Assembly (NCBI GenBank): GCA_944326465.1
Contig: CALVEB010000004.1
Location: forward strand, 21,717 to 85,716
From: Candidatus Gastranaerophilales bacterium
GTDB taxonomy: Bacteria > Cyanobacteriota > Vampirovibrionia > Gastranaerophilales > Gastranaerophilaceae
Reading direction: 5' to 3'
DNA length: 64,000 nucleotides
The notes below the pieces were generated by a model. That model was not told the origin of the DNA and ran no database searches. It saw only the letters and a program-made list of their open reading frames with translations. The translations under genes and the position numbers were made by a program. This document shows, one piece after another, positions 1,439 through 54,137 of the stretch (the first letter of the stretch is position 1; every line of letters begins with the position of its first letter).

Positions 1439-1762
1439 ATGAAAATTAAAAAAGAAATTTTAGACAGATGTATAACGTTTGAAGATCATATTATGCAGGA
1501 ATTACAGGATAGCGAGATGCAGAAGGAATATCTGCGACTGAATATTGAAGAATATGTAAAAGATGGGGATTCTAAACTATTTTTCAAAGCACTTGGAAGG
1601 GTTGTCAAAGTACGGACAACAGTCAGCCAGCTTGCAAAAGATTTAGATATGAATCGTTCAAATCTTTCAAATATTTTGAAAGGTAAAGTGCAGCCAAGTT
1701 TTTATACAACAATGAAAATACTCAGAGGTTTGGGCGCTGAAATAGAGGTGAAATTCGCATAA
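1439..1762 (+). CDS. Addiction-module antidote protein (HI1420/HigA-like HTH family), with no toxin partner
   Basis: 107 aa. Paralogous to 10337..10660: EYLRLNIEEYVKDGDSKLFFKALGRVVKVR aligns with MYLDAAIQDFITEGDYDLFFQSLEQVVKAR. It has a C-terminal HTH and an RBS AGGGGA upstream. Confidence 0.75.
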   Translation: MKIKKEILDRCITFEDHIMQELQDSEMQKEYLRLNIEEYVKDGDSKLFFKALGRVVKVRTTVSQLAKDLDMNRSNLSNILKGKVQPSFYTTMKILRGLGAEIEVKFA

Positions 1763-7820: not shown

Positions 7821-8843
7821 TTATTCACTATTAGGCTTTATACATACAGCAAGGTTTGTGAGAAATATTCTGCTGCTTAATAGCGGATATGAAGAAAACA
7901 CTGAGTAATGGTAAGCATAGCTAAATCCCTCAGACTCTTCTTCTCGCGACCAGATTGAAAAGCTAACATCAGAATAAGGTGATTTGCTAACAAATGGTAT
8001 AATTTCCTTTTTGTTTAATTTATCAGGATTTTTATAGAAATATTTTACCAATAATTCTAATTGTTCTAATGTTGGCATTTTATTACTACCACCGCATGCT
8101 CTTACTGCTCCAGCCCATAAATCTGGCTGTAATCCACATTTTTTAATGCCAAATTGATTGTTTTCAATTGCTTGTTGGCATTCTTGAACGGTCATTGGAC
8201 TATATTCTTTTTGCGGTTCTAATATTTGAGTTATACAAATATTAGAAGCTAATTCCGGTATTAAGCATTTTGTTATACCATTTAGTTCATTAACATTAAT
8301 TTGTCTTATATCTTTACCATATACATTAGGTCCGCCATTTCCTGAAACATCATAAATAATGGATATACTTTCTCCTATAGGTGTAATTCTACTATTATAT
8401 CTTCCAATTGGAGCATTTGGGTTATACGCGATAATAGCATTTACTCCATTATCAAATTGGACTGCGACAGTTTCTGTATTCCAGTCTGGATTACCTAATT
8501 GGGTTGATGTTTTTATTTGAAATGCGTCTATTACAGGCTTTTTATCGTCCCATAAAATACTTTTGGCAAAACATTTTTCTATTTGAGTGTTTTTACAGAC
8601 ATTACTAATTTTTATATAATTTTTAAATTCATTTATAAAATCTATAGTAGATTTATATCCGGATAAATTATTATCTTGATGCATTTTCATTATTGAAAAA
8701 TGTAATTGTTCTTCAAATCCTTTAGATTTTAAATTCCAGTTCTCTTCTTGTTTTGCCTGTATAAAATTTAAAAAGACAATTATAACAATAACTACAACTA
8801 TAAAGATAATAAAATATTTAATTAAAATTGATAATTTATTCAT
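7821..8843 (-). CDS. Membrane-anchored protein (P1) with the pilin-family core and a DUF1566-like C-terminal module
   Basis: N-terminal TM segment MNKLSILIKYFIIFIVVVIVIIVF. YDVSGNGGPNVYGKDI aligns with VDVNGKKGPNRVGKDI in P2/P4. DLWAGAVRACGGSNKMPTLEQLELL aligns with NYWAGAIKACKDKDMELPTRAQLAQL. RBS GAGGAG upstream of ATG 8843. Confidence 0.65.
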   Translation of the reverse strand: MNKLSILIKYFIIFIVVVIVIIVFLNFIQAKQEENWNLKSKGFEEQLHFSIMKMHQDNNLSGYKSTIDFINEFKNYIKISNVCKNTQIEKCFAKSILWDDKKPVIDAFQIKTSTQLGNPDWNTETVAVQFDNGVNAIIAYNPNAPIGRYNSRITPIGESISIIYDVSGNGGPNVYGKDIRQINVNELNGITKCLIPELASNICITQILEPQKEYSPMTVQECQQAIENNQFGIKKCGLQPDLWAGAVRACGGSNKMPTLEQLELLVKYFYKNPDKLNKKEIIPFVSKSPYSDVSFSIWSREEESEGFSYAYHYSVFSSYPLLSSRIFLTNLAVCIKPNSE

Positions 8844-8857
8844 GACTCTCCTCTTTG

Positions 8858-9130
8858 TCAAAAAAGGAATGGTGCTTGTCGTATTTTTTGATTAAGGCGC
8901 TCTCTTTCCAAGTTATTATAAAACTGGCGCTGTTGATCCAATTGTTTCTGTTGCATGATTCGTTGTTGATTAATTGCCTGTTGTTGTAATTGAATTTGTT
9001 TTTCTTGCAATTCATTTTGCCTACACATTTGGTATTCAATTGAGTTAGGTGGTTGATAACAGAATCCAAAGCTTACCTGTGGAATAATTAAATTAATCAA
9101 AATTATTAAGACTAAACTTTTGTAATGCAT
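8858..9130 (-). CDS. Small secreted Gln-rich hypothetical protein
   Basis: Signal peptide MHYKSLVLIILINLIIPQVSFG followed by a Q-rich coiled segment. It lies immediately upstream of 7821..8843 in the same operon. Confidence 0.5.
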   Translation of the reverse strand: MHYKSLVLIILINLIIPQVSFGFCYQPPNSIEYQMCRQNELQEKQIQLQQQAINQQRIMQQKQLDQQRQFYNNLERERLNQKIRQAPFLF

Positions 9131-9140
9131 AAATACCTCA

Positions 9141-9416
9141 TTAATTTACAGCTAATACATATATTATTTGTTTTCTATTATTTGTTGAAATTTCCCCTTT
9201 ATGTTTGTTTGTAATATCTAAGTCTAACTGAAAATTATCTTTTACTAATTTTCCTAATTCAGTAACTATTTTATTTAAAATATCTTCTTCAACATCTTCA
9301 GACATACAGAGACCTATTAATTGTCCATTTAATGATATGGAAATGGGTTGTCCATAATTATGACTTAAAATTTGTTCAATCTTAAAAATGTTTTCAATTT
9401 CTTTAAAATTTGGCAT
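9141..9416 (-). CDS. Hypothetical protein (first gene of the P1 operon)
   Basis: ORF with an AAGGAG RBS before ATG 9416 (MPNFKEIENIF...). Confidence 0.5.
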   Translation of the reverse strand: MPNFKEIENIFKIEQILSHNYGQPISISLNGQLIGLCMSEDVEEDILNKIVTELGKLVKDNFQLDLDITNKHKGEISTNNRKQIIYVLAVN

Positions 9417-9454
9417 ATTTTTCTCCTTTAATTTGACCACATAATATTTTTACC

Positions 9455-9488
9455 ATGTTTAACATTAATTGTCAACATGTTTAACATT
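9455..9488. promoter_or_regulatory. Two copies of the palindromic operator-like site ATGTTTAACATT, 22 bp apart
   Basis: Copies at 9455-9466 and 9477-9488, in the divergent region between the XRE gene (9537) and the P1 operon (9416). Confidence 0.45.
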
Positions 9489-9536
9489 GTAGAACAACAA
9501 AAAATATCAAATTAAAATATACAAAAAGGTTTTTTA

Positions 9537-9866
9537 ATGGGAAAAAATTATATACAAACAAATTTAGGGCAAAAAATAAAGAAATTGAGAAAATTGAAAG
9601 GATACAGTCAAGAGGTATTTGCTGAAAAAATTGGGATTGCTACAAATTCATTGAGTAGTATTGAAACAGGTAATTCTTTTATGACATCAAATACCCTTGA
9701 TAAAATTACTAAAGAGCTAGAAATTTCATTAAATGAACTTTTTGACTTTGATGATTGCCAATCAAATAAAGATATGTACACTTTTATAATTAATAAATTG
9801 AATTATTTGAAAAATAATGAAGAAAAAATAACGTTAATTTATAAAATAGTTAAAGCGATATTTTAA
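9537..9866 (+). CDS. XRE-family HTH transcriptional regulator
   Basis: LGQKIKKLRKLKGYSQEVFAEKIGIATNSLSSIETG. Paralog of 45481..45804, including the C-terminal extension. Confidence 0.85.
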   Translation: MGKNYIQTNLGQKIKKLRKLKGYSQEVFAEKIGIATNSLSSIETGNSFMTSNTLDKITKELEISLNELFDFDDCQSNKDMYTFIINKLNYLKNNEEKITLIYKIVKAIF

Positions 9867-10026: not shown

Positions 10027-10344
10027 ATGAAAGAAATTATTTATTATAAGACTTATGATAATAAATGCCCTTATCTTGAATGGTATAATTCATTAGATAA
10101 AAGTGTCAGGTTAATAATTGACAGAAGAATAGACCGCGTAAGATTAGGGAATTTAGGCAAACATAAAAAATTTGATAATTTGACAGAAATAAAATTTATT
10201 TAAGGTGCAGGTTATCGAATTTATGCATACGAATATGATAATGTAGTAATTATATTTTTATCAGCAGGAGATAAGTCAAAACAATCAAAAGACATTGAAC
10301 TTGCGAAGAAATATTTACAAGAATTTAAAGAAAGGTATGAATAA
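10027..10344 (+). pseudogene. Addiction-module killer protein (HI1419/RelE-ParE-like) interrupted by an in-frame TAA at 10201-10203
   Basis: MKEIIYYKTYDNKCPYLEWYNSL...LTEIKFI*GAGYRIYAYEYDNVVIIFLSAGDKSKQSKDIELAKKYLQEFKERYE. The same frame continues on both sides of the stop, and the family motif G-x-GYRIY lies directly after it. Confidence 0.75.
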
Positions 10345-10660
10345 AATGGATATAGAAAAAATCAAATCAGAAAATATAACTCACGAAGAACACATGAATA
10401 ATGTTTTGCAAGATATAGAATATCAAAAAATGTATTTAGATGCAGCTATACAAGATTTTATCACTGAAGGTGATTATGATTTATTTTTTCAGTCTTTAGA
10501 ACAAGTTGTTAAGGCACGCATGAGTATAAGTGAATTTTCACAAAAAACAGGAATAACAAGAGCCGCATTATACGAAATGTTCAAGGGTGAACGTGTGCCG
10601 AGATTAGATACAATCGGCAAATTATTAAAAGAACTCGGATTTTCTTTACATGTTGCCTGA
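10337..10660 (+). CDS. Addiction-module antidote protein (HI1420/HigA-like HTH)
   Basis: MNKMDIEKIKSENITHEEHMNNVLQD...SISEFSQKTGITRAALYEMFKGERVPRLDTIGKLLKELGFSLHVA. ATG 10337 overlaps the toxin stop (ATGAATAA). Confidence 0.8.
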   Translation: MNKMDIEKIKSENITHEEHMNNVLQDIEYQKMYLDAAIQDFITEGDYDLFFQSLEQVVKARMSISEFSQKTGITRAALYEMFKGERVPRLDTIGKLLKELGFSLHVA

Positions 10661-24184: not shown

Positions 24185-25336
24185 TTAGTTCGACACACAT
24201 ATAGCGCGGCGGTTGCTGTTGTTCTTGAAGTACCAGATATTGTCATTGCCGGTCGTGTCGGAAGTGTCGAAGTACCGGTAGTACGCGGTAAGCGCATTGC
24301 GCTCCTCACTGGACCAGTAGTGGTAGCCAAGAGTAAGGGGAGGATTATCTTTGTATTCGTCCTTTACTTTAAGACCTAATTTGTCTTCGTTTGCTCCTAT
24401 TGTTACTTCATTGCCGTTGCTGTCTACATATAAATTACTTGCCAGTTGCGCAAGTTGTGCTCTCGTAGGAAGTTCCATGTCTTTATCTTTACATGCTTTT
24501 ATCGCTCCTGCCCAATAATTGGTTGAGCATCCACTGCTTGTATAGTTCTTATCATATTCACTTGTGCCATCACATGTGTCGATAGGGGTGTTTGCGGCAA
24601 AATCTGTGCTAAAGCACATGTCGCCTATAGGGTTATCGCAAGTAGAAAACGCTACACCTGATGATAATTCAATATCTTTTCCAACTCTATTAGGGCCTTT
24701 CTTTCCGTTTACATCTACCATATATGCCATGCAGCTTACCTGACTTCCTGTATCTTCTATTGGATCAGCGTAAGGGCATTCCGGCTGATATGCCATAATG
24801 ACTGTTGTCCCGTCTGCTACTACAAAGCTCATGGTATTTGTATTAGTTTGCCATTCCTTTAATCCCATGCTGCTTGCAGAAGTGAGACCGTTTGTTTCAA
24901 TTTCTTCTAACGCATCGTTCTTACCTGTTGTGACAACTTTAGGTGAATAACATTTGTTGATGTCATCCTTGTCACAGGTTTTGATTACTTTCATGTAGTT
25001 TTTGAAAGTGTTCATGAAATCCTCTGTAGTATCGTGTCCTGTCATTACACCGTCTACGTTCATACGGCGTACGGTTTCAGTGAGTTTCTTTTCCCACAGG
25101 TCTTTTGCTGTAGACCATGCTTTTTCATTGTGGTTCTGGATGAGACCAGGAAGGGTTAACGCGGCAACGATGCCGATAACCGCGAGGGTTATTAGGACTT
25201 CAGCCAAAGTGAATGCTGCTTTAGCGTGCGCCTGAGTGTAAGAGCGGGCTTGTCCACCTTTAGCGGTTGCCCGAGCGTAAGAGCACACTTGTGTGCCTTC
25301 TGCTAACGTAAATGCGTAATTTTCTGTTCTAGTCAT
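24185..25336 (-). CDS. Type IV pilin-like protein P2 (prepilin-type N-terminus, DUF1566-like C-terminus) with a 99-nt in-frame repeat insertion in the leader
   Basis: MTRTENYAFTLAEG-[insert]-AAFTLAEVLITLAVIGIVAALTLPGLIQNHNEK...VDVNGKKGPNRVGKDI...NYWAGAIKACKDKDMELPTRAQLAQLASNLY. RBS AAGGAGG. Confidence 0.7.
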   Translation of the reverse strand: MTRTENYAFTLAEGTQVCSYARATAKGGQARSYTQAHAKAAFTLAEVLITLAVIGIVAALTLPGLIQNHNEKAWSTAKDLWEKKLTETVRRMNVDGVMTGHDTTEDFMNTFKNYMKVIKTCDKDDINKCYSPKVVTTGKNDALEEIETNGLTSASSMGLKEWQTNTNTMSFVVADGTTVIMAYQPECPYADPIEDTGSQVSCMAYMVDVNGKKGPNRVGKDIELSSGVAFSTCDNPIGDMCFSTDFAANTPIDTCDGTSEYDKNYTSSGCSTNYWAGAIKACKDKDMELPTRAQLAQLASNLYVDSNGNEVTIGANEDKLGLKVKDEYKDNPPLTLGYHYWSSEERNALTAYYRYFDTSDTTGNDNIWYFKNNSNRRAICVSN

Positions 25337-25354: not shown

Positions 25355-25418
25355 GTTATAACATTATTATAACCTATTTACAAAAATTACTGTCATAATA
25401 GTTATAACATTGTTACAA
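25355..25418. promoter_or_regulatory. Two operator-like sites GTTATAACATT(A/G)TTA(T/C)AA, 46 bp apart
   Basis: Sites at 25355-25373 (inverted repeat GTTATAA/TTATAAC) and 25401-25418, between P2 and the divergent AbrB-like gene. Confidence 0.4.
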
Positions 25419-25438: not shown

Positions 25439-25588
25439 ATGATAAGAAAAATAATACAGATAGGAAACAGTTGGGGCGTTATAATTCCGCTGCCAATACT
25501 GGAACTGATTAAAATAAACCCAATAAAAGACAGAGTTGAATTTAGCGTTGAAAAAGATTGTATAATCATTAAAAAAGTTAAAGAATAA
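25439..25588 (+). CDS. AbrB/MazE/SpoVT-family small DNA-binding protein (49 aa)
   Basis: Below the ORF-track size cutoff. MIRKIIQIGNSWGVIIPLPILELIKINPIKDRVEFSVEKDCIIIKKVKE contains the IGNSxGVxIP swapped-hairpin motif. Confidence 0.6.
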   Translation: MIRKIIQIGNSWGVIIPLPILELIKINPIKDRVEFSVEKDCIIIKKVKE

Positions 25589-37651: not shown

Positions 37652-37882
37652 TTAATCCTGATTGTGCAATGGTAAAAGACAGTTAAGATCAACTCCGAGA
37701 GCCAGCGCGATATTCGCAACAACAAGGATTGTCGGACAAACTTTTTCGTTTTCAATCCTGTATAAATGCTGCGGAGTAATATCAGCTTTTTCAGCAAGAT
37801 ATTCCTGTGAAAAATTTTTTCTTGCCCGTTCAACCCGTATGTTTTCTGCCAGAATTTTTACTGCATCTTCTTTCGTTAACAT
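37652..37882 (-). CDS. XRE-family HTH transcriptional regulator (76 aa)
   Basis: LAENIRVERARKNFSQEYLAEKADITPQHLYRIENEK. Divergent from pilin-like gene P3. Confidence 0.85.
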   Translation of the reverse strand: MLTKEDAVKILAENIRVERARKNFSQEYLAEKADITPQHLYRIENEKVCPTILVVANIALALGVDLNCLLPLHNQD

Positions 37883-37900
37883 AATATTATGTTAACACTC

Positions 37901-37928
37901 TTGACACAAATTTTTTAGAACATATAAT
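37901..37928 (+). promoter_or_regulatory. Sigma-70-type promoter of P3
   Basis: TTGACA (37901-37906), 16-nt spacer, TATAAT (37923-37928). The palindrome AACATATATGTT lies just downstream. Confidence 0.5.
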
Positions 37929-37989
37929 TTAATTTATGAACATATATGTTTATAAAACAAATTATAATTATGTAATTCAGGAGGGAAAT

Positions 37990-38661
37990 ATGAAAAAAGG
38001 AAACGCTTTTACTCTTGCAGAAGTTTTAATAACTATGGCAATTATAGGTGTCGTTGCAGCATTAACCATTCCGAACATTGTTCAAAACTACAAGAAAAAG
38101 GTTGCAACTGTAAGATTAAAAAAGTTTGTGTCTTCAATGCATCAAGCAATAGCACTTTCAGAACTTGAAAATGGCTCAATTACAAGCTGGAATGTAGCTG
38201 CATATATACCACCTACAGGCGATCCAAACAGTGATGAATACAAAGATGCATACAGACAGAACGCCAATAATGCACTTGCTTTTTTTAATCAATATCTTGC
38301 AAAATATATTAATCATACAAAAATCGAGGAGGCAAAAGACTACAAATCACTGGTATATTTTGCTGATGGTTCATGCATGTGGCTTTATAACGGAGGGCTT
38401 ATAGATATCAAATATGCAATTAATTGCAGCAGCGGACAGGATAAAAATGGTGTTGATGATTTTGCCTTCATCATTAATCATAAAGGCAATGACATTTATT
38501 TGGGGAACAAAAAGTTTAACGGTTATTACATTTCTCCAATAGACAGCTTAACTCGTGAGCAGGCAATTGCTAACTGTAAAAATAATGCATATAATTGTAC
38601 AGCACTTTTAGAAAAATTTGACAACTGGGAGTTCAAAGACGATTATCCCTACAAATTTTAA
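37990..38661 (+). CDS. Type IV pilin-like protein P3 (uninterrupted prepilin leader)
   Basis: MKKGNA|FTLAEVLITMAIIGVVAALTIPNIVQNYKKK. RBS AGGAGGG before ATG 37990. Confidence 0.8.
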   Translation: MKKGNAFTLAEVLITMAIIGVVAALTIPNIVQNYKKKVATVRLKKFVSSMHQAIALSELENGSITSWNVAAYIPPTGDPNSDEYKDAYRQNANNALAFFNQYLAKYINHTKIEEAKDYKSLVYFADGSCMWLYNGGLIDIKYAINCSSGQDKNGVDDFAFIINHKGNDIYLGNKKFNGYYISPIDSLTREQAIANCKNNAYNCTALLEKFDNWEFKDDYPYKF

Positions 38662-45480: not shown

Positions 45481-45804
45481 TTAAAGTAAATCATTTGTAA
45501 TCTTGTATAAAAAGCGTAATTTATTTTGGTCAGTCTCAATTATTTTTATATTTTTCAGTATTTTTTCCAAATACTCCTGATTTGTGAAAAAATCCTGAAA
45601 GTTATATAAATCTTTTTCTTCTACATTCAAAGCGGCCGCTATTTTTTCAAGGTTTTCAGGTGAGGGATAATTCCTGCCGGTTTCTATTTTGCTCAAGCTT
45701 GAGATGTCAAGTCCCAGTATTTCAGAAAAATTTTCCTGCGTAATACCTTGTGATTTTCGAAGTGATTGTATGCGTTTGCCAAGTTTAATTTTTAAGTTAG
45801 TCAA
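45481..45804 (-). CDS. XRE-family HTH transcriptional regulator (TTG start)
   Basis: LGKRIQSLRKSQGITQENFSEILGLDISSLSKIETG. Paralog of 9537..9866. AAGGAG lies 6 nt before the TTG. Divergent from P4. Confidence 0.85.
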   Translation of the reverse strand: MTNLKIKLGKRIQSLRKSQGITQENFSEILGLDISSLSKIETGRNYPSPENLEKIAAALNVEEKDLYNFQDFFTNQEYLEKILKNIKIIETDQNKLRFLYKITNDLL

Positions 45805-45854: not shown

Positions 45855-45917
45855 TTGTTAGGCAATTTTATACTTGACAATAATGCTTAATAATCATAAA
45901 ATAGTTTTGTTAAGCAA
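45855..45917 (+). promoter_or_regulatory. P4 promoter flanked by repeated TTGTTA(G/A)GCAA sites
   Basis: TTGACA (45874-45879), 17-nt spacer, TAAAAT (45897-45902). TTGTTAGGCAA lies at 45855-45865 and TTGTTAAGCAA at 45907-45917. Confidence 0.5.
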
Positions 45918-53177: not shown

Positions 53178-53289
53178 ATCCTTATAATTTTCTTATAATT
53201 CGTATAACTAAAAGATAACACAAAAACTTCAGACAGTGAAGTGTTAACTTTCTTTATTTTTTATTGACACATTATTTTTTTTGCCTTAG

Positions 53290-53437
53290 TCTGAGGTCAG
53301 AGGAAATGAAGTGGAGATCTTCAACTGTAGCCGCAGCCGTAAAAGTCGGAACACTCGAAGAAAAGCTTTGGTCACGTGCTTTTTGACCATAGACAAAATC
53401 TTTTTTTCAGTGTCCTCTAAGAATAGAGGATTTTTTT
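53290..53437 (+). promoter_or_regulatory. Candidate cis-regulatory RNA or sRNA ending in an SD-sequestering hairpin plus T-run
   Basis: TCCTCT (53413-53418) pairs with AGAGGA (53425-53430). That AGAGGA is the only SD-like sequence, 8 nt before ATG 53439, and it is followed by T7. A second AGAGGA at 53299-53304 could compete for the TCCTCT. Additional hairpin GGTCA...TGACC at 53370-53388. Confidence 0.35.
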
Positions 53438-53438
53438 A

Positions 53439-54137
53439 ATGTCATTTGCAGCAATACAAACGAATAGCGCAAGAGTTGGAACTTGCCCGCACGGATTACC
53501 GCTAGGAGCATGTCCGATTTGTAACGGTATGGGTGGCGGAGGCGGAATGAAGAAGGCTGATTTCTCCGCAAAACCGGGCGAAATGAGCTGGAATGAATGT
53601 GCCGCAATCGGAGCTTTCCTAAAGGCTCAACAAAATGCAAAACTCGCAAGAGAACAAGATGCCATTAATATTGCACAAAATATCAAAGCCTTTCAGCAGA
53701 CAATGACTAATGCGCATCAGCGTTTAACCTCACTTTCGCAGTTTTTTACGGCAAATACGCCTGCAATAATCGCAAAACCCGTTAATTTTGTTCTTAATAC
53801 AATTCTTGCAAATTCTATTAATATATTAAAGAACATGCCGGCTGCAATTACAACGACATTACAAAATATCTCGCAAAAACTCGCTGATATCTCCGATAAA
53901 CTAACTGCTGTATACGGTGAATTAAAAGCCGCTGTGCAGAAAAAAGTATCGGAAACGTTTAACGAACTCAAGAAAAAAGTTAAATCATTATTCGCTATAT
54001 TCAGCCCGCTGGATGCTGATAATGATGACAAGCAGATTGATGAAACTAAAAAAGCCTTTGAATTAAAGACTTTTATACATCATTTGTATAAAAAATTAAC
54101 AGGCGAGCAGAAGGAAGCAACACAAGAAAGTCGTTAA
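53439..54137 (+). CDS. Hypothetical protein with an N-terminal Cys knuckle and a Gly run, followed by helical/coiled regions
   Basis: CPHGLPLGACPICNGMGGGGG followed by low-complexity helical sequence. Its stop codon is the first TAA of an octamer TAA array. Confidence 0.55.
   Translation: MSFAAIQTNSARVGTCPHGLPLGACPICNGMGGGGGMKKADFSAKPGEMSWNECAAIGAFLKAQQNAKLAREQDAINIAQNIKAFQQTMTNAHQRLTSLSQFFTANTPAIIAKPVNFVLNTILANSINILKNMPAAITTTLQNISQKLADISDKLTAVYGELKAAVQKKVSETFNELKKKVKSLFAIFSPLDADNDDKQIDETKKAFELKTFIHHLYKKLTGEQKEATQESR

Follow-up and report, generated by a model that had tools for sequence, protein, structure and literature searches.

Divergent small DNA-binding genes paired with pilin-like genes in a Gastranaerophilales genome: candidate private switches for single adhesin-like proteins

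In the genome (2.07 Mb in 52 contigs; coded G000) of an uncultured Candidatus Gastranaerophilales bacterium, a gut-dwelling relative of cyanobacteria, most pilin-like genes are each faced by a divergently transcribed gene for a small DNA-binding protein. The arrangement was followed up from a 64,000-nt stretch of one contig (C4:21717-85716; hereafter the window), in which four pilin-family loci, P1 to P4, share it. Genome-wide, 44 of the ~56 assessable pilin-like genes have such a divergent neighbour directly upstream, and none has a co-directional one. The reading favoured here, to which we assign a probability of roughly 0.7, is that each of these loci forms a socket: a fixed site where a private small DNA-binding protein, its operator(s) and a promoter switch one pilin-like adhesin gene.

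The pairing far exceeds chance. Open reading frames (ORFs) were called mechanically and not by a gene caller, with some regulator ORFs over-extended at the 5' end, and pilin families A and B were assigned by jackhmmer. The genome contains 56 ORFs with an N_methyl match and 69 matches to the helix-turn-helix (HTH) domain HTH_3 (E down to 1e-18). By position alone, 33 pilin ORFs could be matched to a divergent HTH_3 gene whose end lies 99-606 nt from the FTLAE motif, eight further ones face a ~70-aa protein of a second HTH family, and two face AbrB-like proteins. The final census, with motif-less family members such as P1 added and contig-end ORFs removed, holds the 44 pairs given above, 34 of them formed by HTH_3 genes, against 0.8 expected from random placement (maximum 5 in 5000 trials); half of the genome's XRE genes are pilin partners. 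A census of this kind had been proposed as the check on the original prediction and turned out in its favour, though its wording that every pilin-family locus is paired applies to the window and, across the genome, to ~79% of loci. About ten pilin-like genes are left out of the census, as many paralogs lie at contig ends. At many contig ends the assembly breaks off within a family-A pilin paralog or its repeat-rich leader (for example C10:43-594, C12:130-423, C22:35646-36806, C35, C38, C39, C43); the true copy number is therefore above that counted, with ~10 loci not assessable.

The second HTH family was classed by fold alone: its AlphaFold2 (AF2) model (predicted local distance difference test, pLDDT, 90) fits the HTH folds of HipB, TP901-1 CI, C.Esp1396I and SinR (TM ~0.65), and a sequence-profile search of the PDB gave only spurious matches. 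Relatives were compared through best BLAST or pattern matches, which represent partial samples and not complete censuses; they comprise five sister species or congeners (G001-G005) and an order-wide sample from dozens of species represented by metagenome-assembled genomes (MAGs). In the latter, the pairing recurs in 32 of 65 Gastranaerophilales loci, again always divergent (32 versus 0 co-directional). It is thus hardly credible that ORF calling, or chance in an AT-rich genome, produced the pattern as an artefact. Mechanical ORFs with over-extended 5' ends and the abundance of short repeats in AT-rich DNA could foster such an artefact, but the strength of the HTH_3 matches, the excess over random placement, the syntenic orthologs in other species and the recurrence across dozens of MAGs effectively refute it.

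In the window, the layout common to the four loci is as the original prediction described it, with three XRE/HTH_3 regulators and one AbrB/MazE-like gene. The HTH_3 scores of the P1, P3 and P4 partners are 41-57 bits (cut-off 23). P2, P3 and P4 match PF07963 (N_methyl) and TIGR02532 and carry a G/A-F-T-L-x-E motif followed by a hydrophobic alpha-1 helix, P1 being the exception. The features of the four loci, in window positions, are as follows.

7821..8843, minus strand: P1, family-A pilin-like gene (ORF 7821..8861; likely start ATG 8843, preceded by the ribosome-binding site (RBS) GAGGAG)
8858..9130, minus strand: second ORF of the P1 operon, 90 aa, putatively coding (N-terminus signal-peptide-like; Q-rich coiled region)
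9141..9416, minus strand: 91-aa ORF, first gene of the P1 operon (from the ORF list)
9447..9475, minus strand: P1 promoter (-35 TTGACA 9475-9470, -10 TAAAAA 9452-9447)
9455-9466 and 9477-9488, minus strand: P1 candidate operators ATGTTTAACAT(T), one filling the -35/-10 spacer and the other abutting the -35
9537..9866, plus strand: P1 XRE regulator, 109 aa (HTH_3, PF01381, E=1.5e-10; ~40-aa C-terminal helical extension)
24185..25336, minus strand: P2, family-A prepilin-like gene (N_methyl, TIGR02532; 41-aa leader before FTLAEVLITLAVIG)
25355-25372 and 25401-25418: P2 candidate operators GTTATAACATTATTATAA and GTTATAACATTGTTACAA, 18-mers unique to the P2 spacer
25439..25588, plus strand: P2 partner, AbrB/MazE/SpoVT-like, 49 aa (motif IGNSWGVIIP)
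37652..37882, minus strand: P3 XRE regulator, 76 aa, HTH only (PF01381, E=8e-13)
37875-37896, plus strand: P3 palindrome GTTAACATAATATTATGTTAAC, 22 bp, perfect, overlapping the XRE start codon (p~0.02 versus shuffles)
37901-37906 and 37923-37928, plus strand: P3 promoter (-35 TTGACA and -10 TATAAT, 12/12 consensus positions)
37939-37950, plus strand: P3 palindrome AACATATATGTT
37990..38661, plus strand: P3, family-B prepilin-like gene, 223 aa (MKKGNAFTLAE...; N_methyl, DUF6613 and prepilin-type NCBIfam matches)
45481..45804, minus strand: P4 XRE regulator, 107 aa, with C-terminal extension (PF01381, E=1.6e-15)
45855-45865, plus strand: P4 site TTGTTAGGCAA
45874-45879 and 45897-45902, plus strand: P4 promoter (-35 TTGACA and -10 TAAAAT, spacing 17)
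45883-45897, plus strand: P4 spacer palindrome ATGCTTAATAATCAT, unique in the genome
45907-45917, plus strand: P4 site TTGTTAAGCAA
45935..47380, plus strand: P4, family-A prepilin-like gene (N_methyl at residues 142-162; 142-aa repeat-built leader)

At P1, the predicted pair of palindromes is found as exact copies of ATGTTTAACAT at 9455 and 9477, 22 bp apart and the only two in the window. The proposed paralogy of the P1 and P4 XREs was likewise recovered (33% identity over 96 residues, C-terminal extension included), and an extension of ~40 residues is shared by at least 12 further pilin-paired XREs of the genome. The best NCBIfam match of the P1 XRE is phage_RstR, over its full length and below the cut-off. 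The designation of P1 as a pilin holds in part. It is a full-length family-A homolog, related to P2 and P4 along its whole body (BLASTP E=3e-31; jackhmmer family A; alignment), with a plain hydrophobic anchor at the N-terminus and a putative Lcl/DUF1566-like C-terminal head; its ORF, however, has no N_methyl match in the Pfam scan and no G/A-FTLxE prepilin motif, and it stands third in a tight string behind the two small ORFs, which have no family match in Pfam or NCBIfam and no second copy in the genome. The P1 module (7821-9866: the XRE, the two small ORFs and P1) has a G+C content of 23-31% compared with 36% for the genome, and the closest ortholog of its XRE among the five congeners is 52% identical; given these two features, the module may be a recent acquisition, or else a fast-evolving locus.

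At P2, the divergent 49-aa gene and two sites are present as predicted, while the AbrB-like assignment derives from sub-threshold matches and is plausible. The partner lacks a Pfam match, and PF04014 finds nothing anywhere in the genome; against TIGR02609 the partner reaches E=1.3e-5 and 25.5 bits, below the cut-off of 55.9. The nine best PDB matches of its homolog profile are all AbrB, Abh, MazE or a 'doc partner' antidote, with sub-threshold E-values of 0.13-0.3. The sequence GTTATAACATTRTTAYAA occurs at 25355 and 25401 (3 matches versus 0.05 expected), the direct repeat has p~0.016 by an any-repeat statistic against shuffles, and neither 18-bp site varies among the four species G000, G001, G002 and G003.

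The pilin, XRE and palindrome AACATATATGTT claimed for P3 are all in place, and the larger palindrome GTTAACATAATATTATGTTAAC, missed by the original prediction, lies on the other side of the promoter; both G001 and G002 retain this control region. All eight members of family B, to which P3 belongs, are regulator-paired. At P4, the predicted TTGTTARGCAA sites do flank the promoter and are conserved across species, although the pair alone does not exceed chance in AT-rich DNA (p~0.98, same repeat statistic). Read with the spacer palindrome, they form four TTARGCA-like half-sites, including three exact TTARGCAW matches inside 60 nt, and this arrangement is retained in two other species (G001 and G005) whose XRE is only 70-71% identical. 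Candidate sites of P2, P3 and P4 are thus conserved in sister species.

Promoter and operator geometry was surveyed in 38 intergenic regions of normal length. In 26 of these, a promoter with at most two mismatches to TTGACA-N16-18-TATAAT faces the pilin gene (22 with an exact TTGACA), a score that 5% of random 170-nt windows reach. Inverted repeats longer than those in 95% of dinucleotide shuffles (p<=0.05) occur in 12 of the 38 regions, with ~2 expected, and nine of the 12 overlap positions -35..+30. A strong promoter beneath a private dyad corresponds to the classical layout of repression, and the putative regulators would bind and repress there. The common AACAT/ATGTT operator theme put forward earlier was not borne out: since the operators all differ and the regulators come from different families, a shared AACAT operator was rejected, each significant palindrome being unique in the genome and private to its locus, and the AACAT likeness coincidental.

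Regulators and pilins have evolved separately. Among 28 full-length family-A loci of G000, mature pilins share a median identity of 62% (maximum 88%) and the regulators at the same loci 25% (maximum 46%), the latter falling into three families. No positive correlation was found between pilin and regulator identity (Spearman -0.11), and duplication of regulator and pilin as a unit was therefore rejected; pilins 84-87% identical to each other adjoin an XRE, a second-family HTH or an AbrB-like protein. Between paralogous loci, nucleotide identity leaps from a background of ~35-45% to 80-100% at the FTLAE codons, and homology drops again at the stop codon or up to ~120 nt past it.

Comparison between species gives the inverse picture: regulators that are 70-100% identical as orthologs stand opposite pilins that differ greatly from one sister species to another. 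Orthologs of the P2 partner are 88-100% identical and occupy the same site beside purD. In G001 at this site, the AbrB-like protein is 94% identical and the facing pilin 33%; in G002 and G003, the leader start is present and an intact pilin ORF was not found beside the gene. For the P3 XRE, ortholog identity in G001, G002 and G004 is 89-93%, with the G001 socket combining an XRE 93% identical and a pilin 29% identical. At the P4 socket of G001, the orthologous XRE has a family-B pilin opposite it and not a family-A one. In G004, the P3 socket (L052:1770-1860) keeps its regulator, palindrome and promoter intact, whereas the pilin is cut to a C-terminal remnant (…TREQALTNCKNNPYNC), the deletion breakpoint lying just 3' of the -10 box. 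We read this as a set of stable expression sites in which recombination, with the conserved N-terminal helix as its anchor, appears to replace or homogenise the coding cargo. A more distant AbrB-like homolog (43% identical; L063 in G004:C11) faces a family-B-type pilin seemingly split into two ORFs.

Pilin loci that lack a regulator tend to carry a different device. The regulator share of the sampled pilin loci is 29/33 in G000, 6/8 in G001, 2/7 in G004, 5/20 in G002 and 0/18 in G005, and the last figure means that a regulator is not required for the pilin family. Only ten G/C runs of at least 9 nt occur in G000, and four of them precede precisely those four full-length family-A genes that have no regulator:

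C3:75934-75943, C6:44174-44186, C19:9590-9599 and C24:24268-24280: runs with G on the sense strand, 331-1071 nt upstream of the respective gene

No run of this length is present in the four window loci or in the 29 full-length assessable family-A paired loci of G000. The run at C3 follows an RBS and an ATG and is itself followed by an in-frame stop, so that the gene reads OFF in the assembly. In other genomes, 60 of 73 sampled regulator-less loci have an upstream run, and run length at such loci is 9-13 nt. Within the genus sample, 42 loci have a regulator only, 35 a run only, nine neither and none both (Fisher p=5e-16); the order-wide family-B-type sample, from dozens of MAG species, divides as 32, 29, four and none (Fisher p=2e-14). 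Regulator and run thus coincide at 0 of 151 loci.

In ~15 loci that were read, the run is preceded by an RBS with ATG and followed by the FTLAE motif, which places it within the sequence coding for the leader; as assembled, most of these loci meet a stop just after the run, with the pilin in another frame. Slipped-strand translational phase variation is classically laid out in this way, as in the poly-G tract of Neisseria pilC, and by this analogy the leader runs would switch translation on and off. If translation does begin upstream of the run, this would also explain why very long repeat-built pilin leaders must stay in frame. The pilin loci L069-L088 of G005, which have no regulator within 2.5 kb, have in common a conserved element ~300-450 nt before the FTLAE codons, made up of a promoter-like CTTGCG-N17-TATAAT, a short ORF that ends in G11-G12, and the conserved hairpin ACACAAGT...ACTTGTGT.

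The exclusivity of run and regulator is the best available evidence that the regulator likewise switches its one gene. Together with the census, it speaks for the originally predicted design of one regulator for each, presumably individually switched, pilin. It also bears on an alternative in which the adjacency has no regulatory meaning, the small HTH genes being orphan antitoxins, phage-immunity remnants or insertion landmarks beside which pilin cassettes tend to insert, with the HTH proteins acting only on themselves or in trans. Such an origin would accommodate regulators that outlast swapped or lost cargo (the G004 P3 remnant; P2 in G002 and G003) and the sub-threshold likeness of the XREs to phage RstR-type repressors and toxin-antitoxin (TA) antitoxins. 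It is nonetheless improbable, given that orientation is invariably divergent in the genome and across the order, that candidate operators sit on the pilin promoter itself and are conserved with it, and that no toxin or phage genes lie near the sockets; strict exclusivity with the leader runs would also be difficult to account for if the regulator did not take over the run's switching.

On the socket reading, a small dimeric DNA-binding protein (mostly of XRE/Cro-type HTH, in some sockets of a second Cro-like family and in a few AbrB-like) would act with its private operator(s) on a strong sigma-70-type promoter aimed at one pilin-like gene. Most likely, the regulator silences this gene from operators over the -35, -10 or +1, and release of a single repressor, upon some inducing cue, would turn a single pilin-like protein on. 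The protein would then be cleaved by prepilin peptidase and displayed at the surface by type IV pilus or type II secretion system (T2SS)-like machinery; the genome encodes one A24 prepilin peptidase (Peptidase_A24, C22:18474-18869) and four PilB/T-type (T2SSE) ATPases. The cargo would be a pilin stalk bearing a C-terminal Lcl/DUF1566-like binding head. The sockets themselves would be old, mutually orthogonal and conserved between species, while pilin bodies recombine with the FTLAE-helix coding sequence as their 5' boundary; in sibling loci, the upstream poly-G/C run in the leader would switch translation by slippage.

Several observations weigh against this scheme. The regulator share ranges from 88% (G000) to 0% (G005). 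Palindromes above shuffle level are absent from 26 of the 38 sockets, and the any-repeat statistic is weak in AT-rich DNA, with 9 of 38 regions at p<=0.05; because of this low power, reliance is placed on palindromes and on cross-species conservation. The P1 XRE faces two unrelated small ORFs before P1, which itself lacks a prepilin motif, and at P2 the AbrB-like assignment comes from sub-threshold matches. Most regulators have no obvious sensor domain that would account for their release. Finally, some dyads lie upstream of the -35 (at P3, -61..-39), a position that fits activation or autoregulation of the XRE.

This last point connects with the more serious alternative, in which the regulators would work as activators, or as bistable switches under autoregulation like those of C-proteins or CI, and turn the pilin ON in a subpopulation instead of just keeping it off. 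Besides P3, several other dyads fall at -96 to -59, upstream of the -35 or over the regulator's start; sites at P1 and P4 are about two helical turns apart or bracket the promoter, like C-box or CI operator pairs; and the second HTH family fits the C.Esp1396I fold. Conversely, with 26 of 38 pilin promoters near consensus an activator should be unnecessary, nine of the 12 significant palindromes cover -35..+30, and the sockets have no second (Cro-like) partner gene. Activation or bistability accordingly has a minor though appreciable chance of being correct, and repression is retained as the preferred mode of socket action.

The nature of the cargo is hinted at by P2, for which an AF2 model of the mature protein (mean pLDDT 73) shows a long helix at the N-terminus and, at the other end, a C-terminal domain (CTD), with pLDDT 85-94 over the last 110 residues. 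This head has no Pfam match. Its top Foldseek matches, the CTDs of Bdellovibrio Bd2740 and Legionella Lcl, are weak (E 0.06-0.09, probability 0.82-0.97, TMt 0.43-0.53), and a conserved YWAGA...LPT...YWSS...C motif in the family alignment agrees with the Lcl-CTD-like match. The model suggests a ligand-binding head on a pilin stalk.

By mode of operation, phage immunity modules come closest to the sockets. Like CI/Cro/RstR modules (e.g. rstR-ig2 of the filamentous CTX-type phages), the sockets would pair a divergent small XRE HTH repressor with operators in the shared spacer; as in heteroimmunity, repressor and operator are highly divergent between near-identical elements, with a sharp homology boundary. 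Unlike them, they involve no phage and no Cro-like antagonist, and they stand as single chromosomal genes among housekeeping genes (purD beside P2, atpG beside P3, radA after P4), each with one pilin-like cargo gene and in ~44 presumably orthogonal copies in a 2-Mb genome. Membership of the extended XREs in the RstR family (NF041951) was rejected, as full-length matches score 52.1 and 49.1 bits against a cut-off of 80; the likeness is one of working mode only. Type II TA systems with an XRE antitoxin form co-directional operons with a cytoplasmic toxin, and the pilin-paired XREs were set apart from such antitoxins because their partners are divergent and secreted pilin-like proteins. Restriction-modification (R-M) controller (C) proteins are also ~70-80-aa XRE HTH dimers with paired dyads about two helical turns apart over a promoter, and the second HTH family matches the C.Esp1396I fold (TM 0.65). 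The sockets differ in being divergent rather than co-transcribed and, as no R-M genes are adjacent, their regulators are not R-M controller proteins.

Large families of surface or adhesin paralogs switched gene by gene offer a second set of parallels, including Neisseria pilC (poly-G in the signal-peptide region), Opa (CTCTT) and Bordetella fim (poly-C). The sibling loci with 9-13-nt leader runs that are OFF in assemblies match these slipped-strand genes, whereas the four window loci have no run and a dedicated DNA-binding protein instead. A strict either/or of regulator and run within one family was not found described in the literature. In E. coli PapB/FocB and Bacteroides UpxY/UpxZ, many alternative surface loci each have their own regulator, as in the sockets; those regulators are, however, co-transcribed, belong to other protein families and exert documented cross-regulation that enforces a hierarchy, while sockets have private candidate operators and no cross-regulation evident from sequence. 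XRE paralogs of Caulobacter reportedly act largely via one common regulatory target and not one to one with adhesin genes. Their radiation parallels the sockets in that expanded XRE paralogs are tied to adhesin control (PMC10688885). The parts are thus familiar individually; neither XRE-pilin pairs nor pilin phase variation was found described for Melainabacteria/Gastranaerophilales, and no description of the one-to-one XRE-pilin arrangement was found in the literature.

With ~88 genes, the sockets account for >4% of a 2-Mb genome and devote about half of its XRE regulators to what would be one-to-one control of one adhesin-like family. This investment points to surface variation as central to how these uncultured bacteria live in human and animal guts, and the strict choice between repressor and run provides a rare argument from nature for functional interchangeability of the two devices. 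More tentatively, ~35 to >90 adhesin-tipped pilin genes per genome may be housed in conserved sockets under orthogonal switches (repressor or run) and diversified by FTLAE-anchored gene conversion, yielding combinatorial variation of the pilus tip repertoire from cell to cell in the gut; this wider picture is doubtful as a whole. If true, it would constitute a transcription-factor-based counterpart of antigenic or phase variation, with dozens of non-cross-reacting repressor-operator pairs. Individual switching of pilins is a directly testable idea, and dozens of compact, presumably orthogonal repressor-operator-promoter sets could be tested in E. coli.

Other observations concern the organisation of sockets and of their surroundings. 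At C23:14832-18099, two sockets stand back to back in the order pilin (minus), second-family HTH (plus), XRE (minus), pilin (plus), the second pilin having an upstream mini-ORF 'MKNNLAFTLAEGRLACTTTQG...' with a stop before the main ORF. One contig of G001 (L026 in G001:C7) has two XRE-pilin sockets in tandem. Two further XRE-type genes of the window, 1439-1762 (plus strand) and 10295-10660 (plus strand), have no pilin partner, and socket membership is therefore not universal among small HTH genes here; the former is a match to the HI1420-downstream antidote family (PF21716). Scanning the window against Rfam gave a tRNA-His and an adenosylcobalamin (AdoCbl) riboswitch and nothing else, so known RNA does not account for the intergenic regions. 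The riboswitch is an AdoCbl-II aptamer at 53287-53364 (plus strand; 37.3 bits versus a gathering threshold of 36.5), upstream of an ORF starting at 53439.

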